Assembly: GCA_004524445.1 (NCBI GenBank)
Contig: SDNP01000014.1
Coordinates: forward strand, 9,013 to 73,012
Length of the DNA stretch: 64,000 nt
Direction of reading: 5' to 3'
Source: Candidatus Thorarchaeota archaeon
GTDB lineage: Archaea; Asgardarchaeota; Thorarchaeia; Thorarchaeales; Thorarchaeaceae
The notes under the pieces were generated by a model, which saw nothing but the letters and a program-made list of their open reading frames with translations, was not told the origin of the DNA and did not search any database. This document shows positions 5,553 to 16,592 of this stretch, one piece after another. Both the position numbers and the translations under genes were made by a program. The stretch's first letter is position 1. Each line of letters starts with the position of its first letter.

Positions 5553-5631
5553 GGTGCCTAGAATCCCAACGCCCGTCATGTCATGCGGAAAGGTTTATGT
5601 CTACATCCCTCAGGTCATTCCAGTGATGCTC

Positions 5632-5739
5632 GGGCCCGTTGCCTAGCCCGGATAGGGCGCTACCCTTCTATATTGCCTGACTTGCTCCGGCTTGTAGGAC
5701 AGGTAGATCTCGAGCGTTCGAATCGCTCCGGGCCCGCCA
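5632..5739 (+). tRNA. tRNA-Arg(TCT) with a 30-nt intron at canonical position 37/38 (5671-5700); CCA encoded
   Basis: Acceptor GGGCCCG/CGGGCCC; anticodon arm CTACC-CT-TCT-A[intron]A-GGTAG; T-arm GAGCG-TTCGAAT-CGCTC. Confidence 0.92.
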
Positions 5740-5978
5740 CCAACCATTCCAATCTGTTTTGGGTCATCAAAATTCGTTCTTCAGAAAATGACAAAAAGTC
5801 GGAAGTCGTTGTGCCGGTTGCGATGAAGGAAGTGCGAAATGGAGGTTATGAGGACACTGCAATAGAAACGGGGCATTAATAGCGCTATTTCAATTCGTCA
5901 ATCGGTTCTTCACACCATTTAATGCATGGTGAGAGCTTTTTCGTTCTCTTGCGGATGCAAATGAAATTTGGATTCCGC

Positions 5979-8900
5979 TTATTGCCGCTGAAGAAGAGCC
6001 GCCTTTAGTTTCTCCCGTAGATGCCATGATAGATTTGCCTTCTCAATCACCATCAAACACTCTTTTCGTTCGAGTTGGAGTTCTCCGCAATAGCCGAGGA
6101 ATAGCTTCAATATGTCCATGTTTCGAATTCCCTCTGGTGGTGTATGGCACACCTCTAGCTGATTTGCAAAGAGGGCAATCTTCTGATGTTTAGGAATATC
6201 TAGCTGCATTACTTTGGAAAAGAGGTCAAGCAACCCAGACCAGACCCCAATTGACCAGACCTGATTGCACTGCTTTCTCCAGGCTGATTCCGCTGTTTCC
6301 CGTATTCTTACCATCGGATTTGCTGGTGCATAGTAGCCAGAGGAACCAGACGTCAGGGCTTTAAATCTAGGATCACCTATGAGTTTTGCCATAAGATTGT
6401 CAAATGCTGGACCGTTGAGTAGCCGTTTGACAACTTGATTGATTTGGTTGAAGGACTGCGCTTTCCGTGCTGCATTTAGTACTCTCATTGCCACAGTAGG
6501 ATTTTCGATAGGCGTCTGGCCTGCAACCTTTGAGCCCAAAACAGCAGTACATGCCTTAAGAGCCAACTCATTGTCTGGCATAATGGGAACTTCCAAGAAG
6601 AAATCCTTGGTTTGATTCAGGATATGTGTCCATAGCGCTCGTTCCAATCTGTCGAGTTCATCACGAATCAGTCCACCACCGATATCAGTGGCCGTAGGAA
6701 GAGCTATTCGCATTGCTTGAGAAGCCTTTGCTATCTCCGTGATATTGCCCTGAGAGTTATCAGATAGATTTGGCAGACTCCTTAGAATTCGCTCCATTAC
6801 CATCGAGGCAGTCATCGTATCTTTCGATTCAGCCACGAATTTCACCAGTAATTCCAAAGCTACCGGCCCTGCCGAATCTGCATCTTCCTCATTCAGAAAT
6901 GTGATAACTTCAAAGGTACTTTTGATTCGCGACTTCGTACTTGGCCCGGCGTTTTGAGCTATGGTCTTGAGCAATCCTTCGATTTTTTCATCTTTGGGAT
7001 ATTCAAAATAGCTTTCCACAATGGGCGAGATTACAGTCAGCATTGCATCGTCATCCAATTCAATCTTTTTGAGTAATCCTTTGAGACGCCGAAATCTTGA
7101 TTCTTGGAGCAAAATCCCTACAACCTCTAGGGCAACAACAGAATAGTGAGTCTTTTCTAACATGCCGAGTAACTCTAACGCCTTGGCTTGGGTTTTTGCG
7201 TATGCAATCTCTTGTGCCACTATTTCAAGTCGACCAACCTGAAGCAATAGATTGATACGAAGATTGGAATCCTCCAAAGACTGAGCCAACTGGCTCAGCT
7301 CTCTTGCAGCTTCAGTATCCTTTGCAATGCTGAATAGCCCAAATGAAAGGTCAGGCATAGCATTAATCAACTTCCTTGCATCTTCATCTTGGTTATTGGT
7401 CATCAGCAACACAAGAAGGTTAACTGCTTCACGTCTATAGCTCTGCAATATCATATTTCTAAACTGAGTAATCGCCAAGTCTAAATTGCCCTCTTTGAGG
7501 GAGGAAACTACTGCAACACGATATGCATCCTCCTGAAGACTCAACGCAGTAAATATACGATAGGTTTCTTCCCAATGTGATGCCTCTAATACGTTGGCTA
7601 GTTCAAGCAACTGATTTCTACACGGGGATATTCCTGCCAAGGTTGATAGCATATTTTCTGGACAGTTGTTCTTCTGAGCAAGTCGGACAGCAGACTCAAA
7701 CATGTTATTCTTCAAGTATATCAAAAGCGCTTGTTCCTGATTGGATTCTGAATTAGATTCGATTTCAACAGCCTTTGTGATTTCATCATATCGGGAAACC
7801 CACGATTTTCGTTTGTATATTGCAGCGCCCACAGCCACTAAGAGTGCAGGTATCATGAAATAAAGCGCATAAGTCTGCCAAATAGTTGTCATGGCGTAAG
7901 ACTCAGAGCTCAAATCCACCAGTATCTCTGCTGTACCAACCAAGATCTCTGCAGAGATGTCAACATTTCCGCCCATAAGAGATAGATCTAGCATTTCGAA
8001 TTGAAATGAATATGTGTTTATTCCAGGTTCGATTACAACGAATCTTGAGTCTATGATCGCTCCATTCCTCAGTATTTTGATTGTCGCAGGAAATGACGAG
8101 TCTTCAGTATTAGATACAATAACATCAATATGCCATACGCCGACCTGTTTGGTTTCGGGTATACGTATTTCCGATACCCATATTCTAGGCGCCCTTGAAG
8201 TCACAATTTGAGTGAACTCATAGACGCTTCCTTCAGGGAAAAAGTGAATCTCATAGTCTCCATTTATCGCCTCTATTGGCAAATCTAATTCAATCTCAGA
8301 TTGATATCCATCATCGCAAACAGCTTGTCCTGTGAATAACAGAGACTCATCTGGTGCAATTATGAAATAGTCGAAGTATGCAACGGGAATCGGGTAGCCT
8401 TCAGATGTTTCGAGTCCTAGTGTATACGCTGTTGATGCACCCAATACGGCATATGTAACAGAAATGGATTTCGCAATTGGTGCCTGTACTTCTATAGGCA
8501 AAGTGTAGTGGCGGTCACTATCGGGAATCCCGTACACAAGAGTGTAGTTACCGATAGAATCACAGAAAGAGAATGAGAGTGATAATTCCGCAATCGAATT
8601 TTCACTACATCTTAGAATCCCAGAGCAGAACACAGTGCCATTCGGACAAAATACTTGATATTCAAATGAGTGTGAAGGCACTCTATTACCGTTCAAATCC
8701 TCCAAACCGAGGGTGATGTTGATGCGCAAACCCAGTGTAGTTGAAATGTTCGGAATGAGTGTCGTAGGAGGGATAAAATCAATTGTTGTAGAAAAGGTAA
8801 GCATTGTATCAGGATCTATCAAATCAAACCGCCATCTTCCATCAGCATCATCATCAGACAGAGCCAAATCATAGCTACCCGTGTATCCATTTGTGAGAAG

Positions 8901-11762
8901 CGTCACATTTTCAAACAGAGAACCGTGCGGACTATAGAGATTCACGAGCAGTGTATCTGCGGCAACGGTTCTGTTGAAGTGGTCACGGAGCCCCAACTCC
9001 ACTACTAAACTGGTACCCAAGGTCATCTTAGACGGGACATCGTATACACAATCAGTCCGCTTTATTATGGGTAGTGGATTGGCTTGATAATCAGAGAACT
9101 TTGCAGTGGGGTTTCCAAACAGGACAAACTGGTTAGAGGTAGCTGCTATGACTCGAATGTACGACCCAGAAATGTAGTAATTGCCGCCCTCTTGATTAAT
9201 TGCGTAGATGTGGGAGTTAACCATAAAGGAATCGTTCATTGCTTGGGAAATGGTCTTATCTTCCTCGACAAGCCCCTTGAGTACGTTCTTCTCCAACAAA
9301 TCAGAAGGCCCAAACAGCGAATCAAGCCAGCATGCAGCAATCGAATCAGCTCCACTCTCCAACATTCTAGCCGGCCCATAGCTCGAACCTAATTGACAAG
9401 TGTCCCAGTATGCGATGACACCTCCCAAGTCAGAACCGTTTATAATCTGAGATATATTCCACGAATCTATGAGGGAGCTCTCTGGATTAACGATATTGTC
9501 TCCATTTCTATCAGGATTACTACAGGACCCTCCTTCTTCATATCCCCATGCTGCAGTGATATTGAAGAGTATGGCCACTCCATCGTCTGAATACATTTCC
9601 TTTCCCATGCCCCCGTGACTTGAGAATTGCCACCATACCTTTGATGACGAAAGCAGATTTACAATATCAGGGCCCGCCTGTTGTACATAGTTGATATCAG
9701 TGGCATCCATAGTTGTTGAAAATGCCACAGGCGTATCTACAATTGTCCATGAATGGGAATTATCAGGTACCCCAAGCCCGTCAGCATATGCGACATGACT
9801 AGCAAGTGCAGGAATATCATAGGATGTACTGGGTACAAGAATGGGCCGGAGGTGTGCCCGCATAATTTGTGCATACGTGGAAATAGAACTGGAAGAGGGA
9901 TATCGTCCGTTTTGAGCCATGCCGGCGATAGCCCTATCAAAGGAGGGAGGAAGAGTTTCACCTGGCCCTCTAAATGGTGCGATATTTACAATCACTGATG
10001 GATTCGTTATTCCAGTGGTGTATGATAGCCAATTCTGGAATTCATCATAGATGCGATACATGGAACTGAATGAAGGATGAAGATATGAGAGGTAGAAACT
10101 GTTTCTCCAATAGTTGTAGTAATGGTAGCCTCCACCAAAGGGGAACTGATAGTCCCCATGGTAGGCCATCTGTTCGCATACCAGAGCCTTTGTCGTATAA
10201 TTTTGCCCCCCGTAGCAGGAAGGGAGAGCTATTCCCCTTCTAGAAGCGGCTGAAAGTCCCGCAGCCCCAAAGAAGCCACCTAAGGGGTCAAATAGAGTCA
10301 CGTTTGTTGTGTTCAGAGTTGCGCCACTAGCAGATACATGATATGCCCAAATGCTAGATGAAGAATCCAAGTGAGTTACAGTCCCATACATCTCCAAATC
10401 GGCAATGAGAGATCCTGCAAAGGTGTTTCCAGAATCAAGGATGATGATCTTAGAGGGGGATATCGCATCGAGGGCGGATATTGTATCTGAATGAAGAGTT
10501 AGCCCGTCGCAATACAGCAGTGGTGCATCACATAGGGAGGCTATGCTAAGACCGTTCGAAGTGGAGATGGCGGTATTAATAAGATCCTCTCCAATCTGCC
10601 GTTTCGTTACCGTAAGATTATATGATGCTCCTGTAGCCTCGTGGGTTGTTAAGTACGCGCGATACGTTCCTGGGCCGGGATAGGAAAGGCGTGCATGTAA
10701 TCGAGTTTTTTCCATCTCATCAGAAACAAGAGCATATCGATTTGCATCAAGTATCAACTCACCACTAGGGTCTAGAACATAGAGGCCCACGGATGTTTCG
10801 AGATTGGCGACCGACAAGTCGAAATCTACTACAGACATCTCTCCAGGAGCCACATCAAAGGAGTATGTGTTCTTAGGCAATGTGTGAACATTCAAAGTGA
10901 AGGAGGTCGTTCTGTCATAGGGATACATATCTATGAAATTAAAGTGCCAAGTATCGCCATAACCTTCAAAATAGGGATATGCCATTACATGGTCCCCATA
11001 CCACGGATAATCCAAACCATATCGACGCCCGTCTTTGTAACAGCCCATCTGTGCTAATTGGTAGTTCAGCACGGAGGAAGATCCGGTCACCCATGCATAT
11101 ATACCTCCGCCTGACCGGGGTATGTCATAGTGACGCTCCCAGTAGTTTGAGCTTGAGGTAGAGAGTGAGTAGGTGCTCAATGTCGGAGCTGGAAGAGTAC
11201 CACTCACATTGTACAGCGTTGTCACTTCATCAAATTTGGACACGCTTTCAGGGGCGTATGATAGAACGACGGTGTCACTCAATGGGAAAAACTCCTCAGC
11301 CAGCATTCCTGAAAGTTCGTAGACATTCTCGCCACCTATCCTCATCACGGTCCGCGCATCACCGATTATTGATGGATAATTGATTTCCTTTACATCTCCC
11401 ACCAGATTGAGTTCATCTGTTTGCCCCCCCAACAAGTTTATCCATTCATCAAGTGGAGTTTCTAGTTCCGTGCCAGACAAATCGGGAACAACAAGACTGT
11501 CAACCTGAAGAGGTCCGGATCGACGAATAGCCAAGGCAGAGCTGGATAAGAGATTCAGTGAGTCGGTATAATCATCGCCACTCATCCCCACAATAGTTGT
11601 CATATTCAAAGCAGCCCTGTTTCCAGTAATTCCTGATTCAATGTAGTCGGCACCCTCAGGCGAAGTATCTGTGACCGAGTCCCTAGAATAGGGAATGACC
11701 GCAGATGGAAAGCTCAGGAATAAAATGGAAACCAGTATTAGTAAAGAACCACGCCATTTCAT
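5979..11762 (-). CDS. Giant single-pass membrane protein: signal peptide, cell-wall-binding-2-like repeats, C25/gingipain-like peptidase, Ig-like repeats, TM helix, cytoplasmic alpha-solenoid
   Basis: RIGGENVYELSGMLAEEF and APLLY..L...TISAL repeats; FSSHGG, WDTCQLG and VLFGNP motifs; TM YALYFMIPALLVAVGAAIY followed by KRK; ~600-aa helical tail. Confidence 0.7.
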   Translation of the reverse strand: MKWRGSLLILVSILFLSFPSAVIPYSRDSVTDTSPEGADYIESGITGNRAALNMTTIVGMSGDDYTDSLNLLSSSALAIRRSGPLQVDSLVVPDLSGTELETPLDEWINLLGGQTDELNLVGDVKEINYPSIIGDARTVMRIGGENVYELSGMLAEEFFPLSDTVVLSYAPESVSKFDEVTTLYNVSGTLPAPTLSTYSLSTSSSNYWERHYDIPRSGGGIYAWVTGSSSVLNYQLAQMGCYKDGRRYGLDYPWYGDHVMAYPYFEGYGDTWHFNFIDMYPYDRTTSFTLNVHTLPKNTYSFDVAPGEMSVVDFDLSVANLETSVGLYVLDPSGELILDANRYALVSDEMEKTRLHARLSYPGPGTYRAYLTTHEATGASYNLTVTKRQIGEDLINTAISTSNGLSIASLCDAPLLYCDGLTLHSDTISALDAISPSKIIILDSGNTFAGSLIADLEMYGTVTHLDSSSSIWAYHVSASGATLNTTNVTLFDPLGGFFGAAGLSAASRRGIALPSCYGGQNYTTKALVCEQMAYHGDYQFPFGGGYHYYNYWRNSFYLSYLHPSFSSMYRIYDEFQNWLSYTTGITNPSVIVNIAPFRGPGETLPPSFDRAIAGMAQNGRYPSSSSISTYAQIMRAHLRPILVPSTSYDIPALASHVAYADGLGVPDNSHSWTIVDTPVAFSTTMDATDINYVQQAGPDIVNLLSSSKVWWQFSSHGGMGKEMYSDDGVAILFNITAAWGYEEGGSCSNPDRNGDNIVNPESSLIDSWNISQIINGSDLGGVIAYWDTCQLGSSYGPARMLESGADSIAACWLDSLFGPSDLLEKNVLKGLVEEDKTISQAMNDSFMVNSHIYAINQEGGNYYISGSYIRVIAATSNQFVLFGNPTAKFSDYQANPLPIIKRTDCVYDVPSKMTLGTSLVVELGLRDHFNRTVAADTLLVNLYSPHGSLFENVTLLTNGYTGSYDLALSDDDADGRWRFDLIDPDTMLTFSTTIDFIPPTTLIPNISTTLGLRINITLGLEDLNGNRVPSHSFEYQVFCPNGTVFCSGILRCSENSIAELSLSFSFCDSIGNYTLVYGIPDSDRHYTLPIEVQAPIAKSISVTYAVLGASTAYTLGLETSEGYPIPVAYFDYFIIAPDESLLFTGQAVCDDGYQSEIELDLPIEAINGDYEIHFFPEGSVYEFTQIVTSRAPRIWVSEIRIPETKQVGVWHIDVIVSNTEDSSFPATIKILRNGAIIDSRFVVIEPGINTYSFQFEMLDLSLMGGNVDISAEILVGTAEILVDLSSESYAMTTIWQTYALYFMIPALLVAVGAAIYKRKSWVSRYDEITKAVEIESNSESNQEQALLIYLKNNMFESAVRLAQKNNCPENMLSTLAGISPCRNQLLELANVLEASHWEETYRIFTALSLQEDAYRVAVVSSLKEGNLDLAITQFRNMILQSYRREAVNLLVLLMTNNQDEDARKLINAMPDLSFGLFSIAKDTEAARELSQLAQSLEDSNLRINLLLQVGRLEIVAQEIAYAKTQAKALELLGMLEKTHYSVVALEVVGILLQESRFRRLKGLLKKIELDDDAMLTVISPIVESYFEYPKDEKIEGLLKTIAQNAGPSTKSRIKSTFEVITFLNEEDADSAGPVALELLVKFVAESKDTMTASMVMERILRSLPNLSDNSQGNITEIAKASQAMRIALPTATDIGGGLIRDELDRLERALWTHILNQTKDFFLEVPIMPDNELALKACTAVLGSKVAGQTPIENPTVAMRVLNAARKAQSFNQINQVVKRLLNGPAFDNLMAKLIGDPRFKALTSGSSGYYAPANPMVRIRETAESAWRKQCNQVWSIGVWSGLLDLFSKVMQLDIPKHQKIALFANQLEVCHTPPEGIRNMDILKLFLGYCGELQLERKECLMVIEKANLSWHLREKLKAALLQRQ

Positions 11763-11923
11763 TCTCTTCCCTCCATGATTGAACGACTCTCGTTTCTCTT
11801 GATAGTTTCACTGATATTCTCTGAGTATCTTCTAATGCCTTTGAGTGCCCAAAGGAAACTAGCTGATAACATAAAAATCGCAATCGCCACTCCTAGAGCT
11901 AAGATTAATTCGATGCTTTGCAT
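11759..11923 (-). CDS. 54-aa single-TM protein translationally coupled to the 1927-aa gene (absent from the ORF track)
   Basis: MQSIELILALGVAIAIFMLSASFLWALKGIRRYSENISETIKRNESRSIMEGRE; GAGGTG SD; its TGA overlaps the downstream ATG (ATGA). Confidence 0.75.
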   Translation of the reverse strand: MQSIELILALGVAIAIFMLSASFLWALKGIRRYSENISETIKRNESRSIMEGRE

Positions 11924-12177
11924 CGCTTACACCTCTCGCAATATGTACAACTTAGAAGCAGCATTTATTCAAAGCCATAGAACTAATGCCACTCATTAAC
12001 CCCAATAGAAAGCACACCAACCAACTTATTAATGTTCTCCTAAAAAGCCAAAATTACCTACTGACGATTTCCTGAATGTGCACTAGTCACTGCTAGCACA
12101 TTCAAGACCCGCTCGTTCATGGGACATTTAAGTGCAATCAGCTATCAGGAACCTAATACAAAGATACTGAATAAACA

Positions 12178-12201
12178 GTTCAAATCTGGCCGGGCCCGCC
12201 A
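12178..12201 (+). repeat. tRNA 3'-end fragment (att-like direct repeat of tRNA-Arg 5716-5739)
   Basis: GTTCAAATCTGGCCGGGCCCGCCA vs GTTCGAATCGCTCCGGGCCCGCCA: 20/24 identical, last 12 nt identical; no 5' tRNA half upstream. Confidence 0.7.
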
Positions 12202-14351: not shown

Positions 14352-16592
14352 ATGGGGCCAATTATGGGTAGAAGATTGGTGGCAGATTTGCTTCTGGTTT
14401 CATTTCTCGTGCTATTGGTTTATTCATGTCCGATAGCCAATGAATCACAACCAAGGGGAATTAATCAGTTTGCATATTCGGTTGATGCGTTCCATGAGCC
14501 GATTCTAATCGTATCTGATAACGACTTTGAAACTCAGGAATGGCCAGGAAGTGGAAGTCCTTCAGATCCATATGTGATTGCAAACCTAACCTTTGGTGAC
14601 AGCGATCTGCCGTACATCAACATAAGCAATGTGGAAAGCGTTTTTGTCATTGAGAATTGCACCATGCTGGAACCAGCGGAGGATGCTGAGTCACATGTTG
14701 GTATTGCTTTATCATTCTTTTCAGACTGCCGCGTTCAGAATAATGACATGTCAAGGATGGAAAATAGGCTATATTTAAGGAACGCAACAAGTTGTATAAT
14801 CGAAGGCAATGAATTCGGCGAAAGTGTTGGGGTTTCGCCATTCGGGGTTCAGAAGGTTCTGGTCATCAATAATGTCTTTCAAGGAGCTGGTTATCCCATC
14901 GATTGTGCTTCAGCTGATGAGCTTGTGGTCAATGACAATGATATCAGTCAACCAGGTTCAGCTCACATATCTTTGTTCTCATATGTACCCCCTTATTTTG
15001 AGTTCACTCACAATAATGTAATTGGTAATATTCATTTTAGTATCGGAGTTGGAAGTCTAAATATCTCATGTAACAATTTCAGGCAGCTGTCTAAGCCCCT
15101 ATTAGTTGGTGATTTTCACCATGAAAACACACTGCCTTCGCCCTATATTTTCGCGAATAACAGATTTGAATCTCACGGAATTGAATTTCATAATCCGGCA
15201 GACTTGAGATTACTAGAAAGTGCTGTGTTTCAAAATAACAGTATCCAAGATGTTGAGATTCCGGTGATTTCTGGACTGGTGGACGAAATAATCGATTGTT
15301 CAGAATACCCGCAGGTTATAGCCTACAATTGCACAGAAGTTTCATTTATCAATGCGGACTTTACCCAAATTGGTACAGCTCTCTCGCTTTTCTTATGCAC
15401 GGACTCCCAAGTTCCCGATCTCTCAGCTGTCAATTGCAGTGATGCCGTTCATCTCTATCGCTGTAAGGCGACCTTCATTGATAACCTGCATGTAGAGTCC
15501 TGTTCTGAGGGGATATCTGTCAGTCTATGCAACGATACAAGAATAATCAATAGCTCATTCATAGAAGGCGGTAGGGCTATCGAACTTGTACACACGTTTA
15601 ACGTCACCATAATTGACAATCGGTTTGAAAATAATCATTATGGAATGGTTCTGCAAGGAACGGCCAATAGCTACATCGTTGGTAACTCATTTGTACAGAA
15701 CAATCATCATGTATACTACCGTCATTACCTGGGACACCCAATTGATAGGTGGGACGACGGTCACGGAAATGGAAACTACTGGGATGACTACATTGGATTT
15801 GGGTCATATATCCTCAATATTGAAGACTATACGATTGCCGATCATTATCCCACTCCGTTATTGCCATGGTACTACAGTCCTGCAGGAATTCTTCTTTCTG
15901 GCATCATAGTTGTATCTGCGATTGCCATTCTTCTAATCATGATTGGTTTCCTTTTGAGCCGACGGAAGGATGGACAGCTTGCTTTAGCACTGACAAATAA
16001 AAACAACTGGCTTCTTCTTGTTTCTTTGCTTGTGATTCTTTTTACACCCCAACTATACGCCTGGGAGATATTGGGTTGGTACGAACCTCGGGTGTGGATT
16101 GCTAGCTATAGCTACGTGATATGGAGCGAGCTTGACTGGACATACCTTCAAGCAACATTGCCTTTCTTCGGTCATGGACAATCGCTTATCAGTTCCGGCA
16201 TTATAATTCTGCTCCTTATTGGGGCGTGGAACTCGGCAGGAAAGGAAGCAGGTAATAGATCAATAGCCAAGTACTTGTTAGGCTTGATGATAGCAATGGC
16301 GATTTCTGCCATGTTGTTTCCCATTTCGCCTTCAGGCCGTGCGTATGGATACCGGTCAGTAGTCGTTCCCCTTCCACTTGCACCACTGCTTATCTATCCC
16401 CTACTCCGAGCGGTTGAAAGAGAGAAAGTGTCCGAGAAGATAGATACCTACTCTATGGAGGGCGGCAAGAGATACACATGTCCGAATTGTGGGGCATCCT
16501 ACATTTACAAGGAAGATACTCTTTACGAACCTGGACGGATAGTCTGCCAGAATTGCAGCAAGAAGTTCAGAGCACAAGCTGTGCCGGACTGA
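14352..16592 (+). CDS. NosD/parallel beta-helix surface protein with a multi-TM segment and a C-terminal zinc ribbon
   Basis: HEPILIVSDNDF...WPGSGSPSDPYVIANL, beta-helix repeats, WDDGHGNGNYWDDY, ~5 TM helices, CPNCG..CQNC. Confidence 0.85.
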   Translation: MGPIMGRRLVADLLLVSFLVLLVYSCPIANESQPRGINQFAYSVDAFHEPILIVSDNDFETQEWPGSGSPSDPYVIANLTFGDSDLPYINISNVESVFVIENCTMLEPAEDAESHVGIALSFFSDCRVQNNDMSRMENRLYLRNATSCIIEGNEFGESVGVSPFGVQKVLVINNVFQGAGYPIDCASADELVVNDNDISQPGSAHISLFSYVPPYFEFTHNNVIGNIHFSIGVGSLNISCNNFRQLSKPLLVGDFHHENTLPSPYIFANNRFESHGIEFHNPADLRLLESAVFQNNSIQDVEIPVISGLVDEIIDCSEYPQVIAYNCTEVSFINADFTQIGTALSLFLCTDSQVPDLSAVNCSDAVHLYRCKATFIDNLHVESCSEGISVSLCNDTRIINSSFIEGGRAIELVHTFNVTIIDNRFENNHYGMVLQGTANSYIVGNSFVQNNHHVYYRHYLGHPIDRWDDGHGNGNYWDDYIGFGSYILNIEDYTIADHYPTPLLPWYYSPAGILLSGIIVVSAIAILLIMIGFLLSRRKDGQLALALTNKNNWLLLVSLLVILFTPQLYAWEILGWYEPRVWIASYSYVIWSELDWTYLQATLPFFGHGQSLISSGIIILLLIGAWNSAGKEAGNRSIAKYLLGLMIAMAISAMLFPISPSGRAYGYRSVVVPLPLAPLLIYPLLRAVEREKVSEKIDTYSMEGGKRYTCPNCGASYIYKEDTLYEPGRIVCQNCSKKFRAQAVPD

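Follow-up and report, generated by a model that had tools for sequence, protein, structure and literature searches.

A thorarchaeal C25-family surface protein with a cytoplasmic helical solenoid and a small overlapping membrane-protein gene

Why would an archaeal surface protease carry a large helical solenoid on the other side of its membrane? The question is raised by a 1927-amino-acid (aa) protein encoded in the window, a 64,000-nucleotide stretch of contig SDNP01000014.1 from a member of the Thorarchaeia, archaeal relatives of eukaryotes. An earlier note, made from the letters alone, described a receptor-like device joining an extracellular gingipain/caspase-clan protease to a coat-like cytoplasmic scaffold. 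All its motifs were found where it had placed them, and its Asgard host agrees with the closest named relatives of the tail-bearing proteins and of a paralogue, which are Candidatus Thorarchaeota. Its observation was confirmed and its interpretation upheld in part; it lacked a second gene for a 54-aa partner. We favor, with a probability of about 0.45, a two-subunit membrane scaffold by which an exchangeable enzyme or adhesin is placed or clustered at the cell surface.

The protein contains exactly two hydrophobic segments, the signal peptide and single transmembrane (TM) helix already noted. Charge bias around the TM helix supports a type I topology, both here and in six relatives, as does the distribution of lysine and arginine, which are scarce in the ectodomain and abundant in the tail. 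An independent assembly of what is probably the source run spans the catalytic Cys, the immunoglobulin-like (Ig) region, the TM helix and the start of the tail in one stretch. Single-sequence searches of Pfam, NCBIfam and PDB matched MG2 only. The ectodomain begins with three units resembling cell-wall-binding repeat 2 (CWB2) in the trimer fold, the third overlapping the N-terminal subdomain of the gingipain fold. The PPC inserts are all-beta in the model, match Pfam PPC in 14 of 27 family members and have a collagen-binding tandem as top Foldseek match. Copy number of the macroglobulin-like Ig repeats varies from 0 to 4 across relatives.

The claim of a clan-CD ectodomain was supported by predicted structure. 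The predicted model shows a caspase-haemoglobinase fold in the two-subdomain gingipain layout, with a conserved His-Gly and then a Cys, each behind a core strand. Pfam PF01364 did not match the 1927-aa protein, matched 15 of 27 relatives, and matched the paralogue above cut-off. When PDB was searched with sequence profiles built on the catalytic region, the gingipains were missed; structure comparison alone reached them. The domain is a new member of C25, and from its fold and dyad it probably cuts extracellular or surface proteins. It shares with RgpB/Kgp and PorU (C25, clan CD) the caspase-like subdomains, the order of His-Gly and Cys, and the FG[DN]P end motif followed by an Ig-like domain. 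Unlike them (~9% identity), it has CWB2/PPC in place of a prodomain, a His-Cys spacing of 73 aa with an inserted Asp-rich loop, its own TM anchor and a 610-aa cytoplasmic tail. Clostridial Cwp6, Cwp8 and SlpA also fuse a CWB2-like trimer to an enzyme, but are wall-polysaccharide binders with neither TM helix nor tail.

The 1286-aa paralogue in the same genome (L025:6609-10469) represents a class-wide thorarchaeal CWB2-PPC-C25 surface protease, present as a single copy in 76 of 85 family genomes and with relatives in several other Asgard families. It has the same ectodomain and dyad, but a short charged tail and no partner gene, and falls in a separate clade. Its tail ends in a conserved aromatic-rich motif, and the protein, near-universal in Thorarchaeia, is apparently undescribed. 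C25-like surface proteins of 1700-2070 aa also occur in other Asgard families (L112-L116), where they contain an insertion and apparently lack the His/Cys motifs; one or two MIT/TPR-like three-helix units in their cytoplasmic tails indicate independent coupling of ectodomain and helical module. Homology of these units to the present tail was rejected (hhalign 1-3%).

As for the tail itself, the proposed all-helical solenoid was borne out: a model drawing on 15 homologues (16-24% identity) contains 35 helices and no strands (predicted local distance difference test, pLDDT, 86.9; predicted template modelling score, pTM, 0.60). No P-loop, CxxC or HExxH motif was found in the tail, and CxxC is absent from 15 of 15 tails. 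Structure searches with the whole tail returned generic solenoids only and no specific coat match, although a missing clathrin or COP there carries little weight. Residues 1322-1420 are the best conserved part. A profile of the first 100 tail residues matched intraflagellar transport (IFT) protein IFT172 with an expect value (E) of 3.3e-7, the best single stretch reaching 0.005. Two matches to IFT140 had E 6e-4 and 7.5e-4, and those to IFT122, IFT144 and Nup93 were weak. An equivalent search with a control helical tail gave none of these matches. Similar clathrin/SNAP-like repeats in bacteria and Woesearchaeota call for caution over an IFT-type reading, and a survey of Asgard solenoids reports that repeat folds converge (10.64898/2026.10.28.762692). 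Weak MIT matches in the tail fell below cut-off, matches to designed PPR/ARM proteins were artefacts of repeat summing, and Atlas feature scores under 0.9 were treated as leads only. A word-limited search found no stand-alone tail protein. Two other repeat proteins were seen: an Asgard fusion to Hsp70 whose N-terminal part is a clathrin/COPA-like solenoid (L136:421-3261; Pfam Clathrin E 6e-6) and, in the same genome as the window, a SNAP-like helical repeat protein (L124:1501-3162; Pfam SNAP E 6e-14).

Searching Asgard genomes with the same profile identified ~440-aa proteins with an N-terminal TM helix, matching repeats directly after it and a RING finger at the end; one is labelled Heimdallarchaeota, and NHJ00617.1 is an example. 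The family occurs in 65 genomes, in a family block that excludes Thorarchaeia. Alignment of its profile to the tail start by hhalign gave 95.6% probability (E 1e-8, 139 columns), compared with 0.1% for a reversed control and 3.3% for another helical tail, and these proteins ranked above all others from the genome that contains the window. The homology is remote, since the reciprocal genome search was weak and stayed short of E 0.001. A TM helix and then homologous helical repeats are in register over ~140 residues, but the Heimdallarchaeia proteins have no ectodomain or partner gene and end in a RING finger, and the thorarchaeal protein, with its CxxC-free tail, is not a member of the RING family. 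In a RING search of the window's own genome the control gave no match. The solenoid next to the membrane probably belongs to the IFT type and shares ancestry with this Heimdallarchaeia-wide family. The family is itself conserved and single-copy (L132, L133, L135, L138-L172); its solenoid profile matches almost exclusively IFT172 (E 1.8e-7), IFT121, IFT144/WDR19 and IFT122 in PDB, and its layout corresponds to a membrane-anchored version of the solenoid-plus-zinc-finger half found in IFT-A/HOPS subunits.

The description "coat-like" is apt for the membrane-proximal ~100-150 residues, with their matches to IFT172/IFT140-type repeats and their Heimdallarchaeia kin, and not for the whole tail, which matches no coat specifically and has no beta-propeller. 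The large protein is not a protocoatomer: the tail starts right after the TM helix, where protocoatomers have an N-terminal beta-propeller. Its likeness to the solenoids of IFT172, IFT140, IFT-A and HOPS/CORVET lies in the kind of repeat that makes up the initial ~100 residues of the tail; unlike them it is integral in the membrane, and its remaining ~450 tail residues are unmatched.

A partner-like gene was present at 12 of 12 tail-bearing loci whose contig includes the upstream DNA, and it almost always overlaps the large gene; three tail-less loci had none. Among 58 comparable large membrane genes of the genome, this one alone has a small overlapping TM neighbor. A complex model of the partner with the Ig-TM-tail start scored 0.58 (best control 0.00), a value rated weak: the mark was reached by 58 of 80 solved and 2 of 110 mismatched pairs, and scores at 0.60 or under comprised seven solved pairs and both mismatches. 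Contacts agreed by at least 90% between runs, with partner pLDDT of at least 82. With the genomic prior included, the modelled partner likely associates physically with the large subunit.

Searches located the full tail in 9 of 87 Thorarchaeia genomes, whereas ~313 searched genomes from elsewhere in the Asgard archaea yielded none. In one genus, three genomes encode protease-less forms in which the tail follows one to three Ig domains. In these forms the tail is better conserved (63-76%) than the ectodomain (46%), and in the tree (support 90) it is sister to the tail of the 1927-aa protein. Conversely, three close relatives keep the protease and end after a Thr-rich linker and TM helix, nesting with the protease of the 1927-aa protein (tree support 98); in a tail-less relative a frameshift splits a DUF2341 extension from the protease region (L044:3787-8615). 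All tail-bearing forms share the last Ig domain, attached without a linker to a TM helix with an invariant Trp and a near-invariant Pro, and the first tail helices; the Thr-rich linker of tail-less relatives stands in place of this juxtamembrane Ig domain. Tail branches are 2-3 times as long as protease branches, and the tail ratio of nonsynonymous to synonymous substitution (dN/dS), 0.05-0.10 where measurable, indicates purifying selection. Independent loss of protease and tail weakens the idea of a device joining proteolysis to a scaffold.

In the scaffold we propose, the large subunit, by its sequence a secreted type I membrane protein, would pack against the small single-TM subunit through a rigid unit made up of the final Ig domain, the TM helix and the solenoid. 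The solenoid would serve as a non-enzymatic interaction scaffold, bind an intracellular partner or itself, and so hold or cluster the displayed part at chosen membrane sites. That part would be swappable: here a CWB2-PPC-C25 cysteine protease on Ig repeats, apparently copied from the class-wide surface protease, and in one genus Ig domains only. The pair may move between lineages as an accessory cassette. We prefer this explanation because loss of the protease leaves tail and partner in place and because neither an output domain nor a regulator is linked. The protease fold and dyad, a helical tail free of catalytic motifs, purifying selection, partner co-occurrence, the ectodomain-free Heimdallarchaeia homologues and an empty slot in a sister species also count in its favor. 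Several points weigh against it. One relative keeps the partner gene with a truncated tail of ~75 homologous residues; the tail-bearing loci are kin and not independent, so 12 of 12 overstates the association; the neighborhood is not conserved except at an iorAB-trxB site in two genera; no cytoplasmic partner of the tail was identified; and the scaffold function is read from the fold class by itself.

A proteolysis-gated receptor resembling Myxococcus DdvA is rather unlikely. Here a ligand or substrate would trigger (auto)cleavage outside, after which shedding or intramembrane cleavage would free the tail or a sequestered factor, with the small subunit gating the TM helix. DdvA is a single-pass transmembrane anti-sigma factor with TPR-CHAT outside, a small zinc anti-sigma domain inside and a linked sigma factor (PMC11506125). 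Both are single-pass proteins with a clan-CD domain outside the cytoplasm, but the thorarchaeal solenoid is inside, and neither a zinc anti-sigma domain nor a linked sigma factor was found; the large protein is not a DdvA family member. The tail is still conserved after protease loss, the protease persists without the tail, and there is no output domain or conserved regulator gene nearby. A defense or contact-recognition cassette, in which protease or Ig domains meet a virus or neighboring cell and the tail recruits an effector, would suit the patchy, fast-evolving tail, the swapped ectodomains and the variable slot beside a tRNA with a duplicated 3' end. We regard it as unlikely, given purifying selection on the tail and neighbors that are other surface proteins or metabolism genes, with no linked effector or defense gene.

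A receptor with its own coat, its protocoatomer-derived solenoid polymerizing under the membrane to bend it or gather vesicle or protrusion cargo, would explain the IFT and Nup93 matches, their absence from the control tail and the near-exclusive IFT-A/IFT172 matches of the Heimdallarchaeia family. It is nevertheless improbable: the profile matches cover only ~100 residues. That the tail is a functionless passenger on an ordinary nutritional surface protease draws on the class-wide paralogue and three close relatives that do without it. This was already disfavored and is very improbable, because length, fold and selection are kept across 20% identity and without the protease, and the partner gene tracks the tail.

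Table 1. Features of the locus, in window coordinates
Feature	Position	Strand	Remark
Whole gene, 1927-aa type I membrane protein	5979..11762	-	
Signal peptide, about aa 1-24	11691..11762	-	hydrophobic aa 5-23 after N-terminal K/R; cleavage site putative
CWB2-like alpha/beta trimer, aa ~49-617, split by PPC inserts	9912..11618	-	
Two PPC-like beta-sandwich inserts, aa ~177-390	10593..11234	-	
Gingipain-fold (C25, clan CD) protease domain, aa ~485-905	9048..10310	-	
Predicted catalytic His716, His-Gly after beta strand	9615..9617	-	invariant 27/27 and 15/15
Predicted catalytic Cys789, after beta strand	9396..9398	-	invariant 27/27
Three macroglobulin-like Ig repeats	8181..9047	-	MG2 E 6e-8
Juxtamembrane Ig domain, no linker to TM	7878..8180	-	
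Single TM helix, aa ~1297-1316, invariant Trp, near-invariant Pro and Leu	7815..7874	-	
IFT140/IFT172-type helical repeats next to membrane, aa 1322-1420	7503..7799	-	
Cytoplasmic all-helical stacked tail, aa 1320-1927	5982..7805	-	
54-aa single-TM partner gene	11759..11923	-	overlaps start codon of large gene by 4 nt
Intron-containing tRNA-Arg(UCU), left edge of variable slot	5632..5739	+	aragorn -i
Second copy of tRNA-Arg 3' end, right edge of slot	12176..12201	+	

The gene pair sits between tRNA-Arg(UCU) and a duplicate of the tRNA 3' end. In the sister species (94% complete) both flanks lie 1.2 kb apart with unrelated DNA between them, and the gene is absent. Here G+C content, overall and at third codon positions (GC3), equals genome values. 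A clean attL/attR island was rejected, since the intact tRNA is followed by host flank and an integrase is lacking; the simplest source of a 5684-12176 joint in the source run is the tRNA-Arg gene of a relative, not an excision, and a 98-aa open reading frame at 5583-5879 is a shadow over the tRNA. The slot is variable, as would suit an accessory cassette that Thorarchaeia exchange or lose. Both sides of the tRNA T-stem differ from the sister species, whose version the orphan 3' copy matches. Nearby, a 746-aa membrane protein with a NosD beta-helix and C-terminal cytoplasmic zinc ribbon (14352-16592) has a receptor-like layout; aligning the sister species gave no match to it at this site. Arf/Ras/Roc small GTPase genes lie shortly downstream at three related loci (L046:10257-13111; L038, L040); they are candidate tail partners, though the linkage may be host synteny. 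Elsewhere in the genome, aragorn calls a tRNA-Sec (contig C49, 39356-39446).

C25 proteases of prokaryotes are familiar as surface enzymes of simple build. The literature searched, including that on Asgard archaea and Thorarchaeota, held neither a C25 protein with a large cytoplasmic solenoid and dedicated TM partner nor any description of this architecture. For the origins of eukaryotic receptors and coats, raised in the earlier note, the bearing is indirect only, with the tail found in so few Thorarchaeia; this patchy, accessory distribution argues against direct ancestry of any of them. It is doubtful, if conceivable, that the pair is an Asgard single-pass receptor or self-coating complex, its IFT/protocoatomer-type solenoid connected by a pair of membrane helices to an exchangeable extracellular protease or adhesin. 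If true, the solenoid would be common to the Heimdallarchaeia membrane RING proteins, and a living example of coat-type solenoids in membrane receptors before eukaryotes. The pair offers a two-gene target friendly to soluble-domain work. By testable homology, the module ties a thorarchaeal surface protease to the membrane solenoid-RING family found across Heimdallarchaeia and to the IFT-type solenoids of eukaryotes. It points to membrane-anchored solenoids of IFT type as a part that Asgard archaea could use repeatedly.
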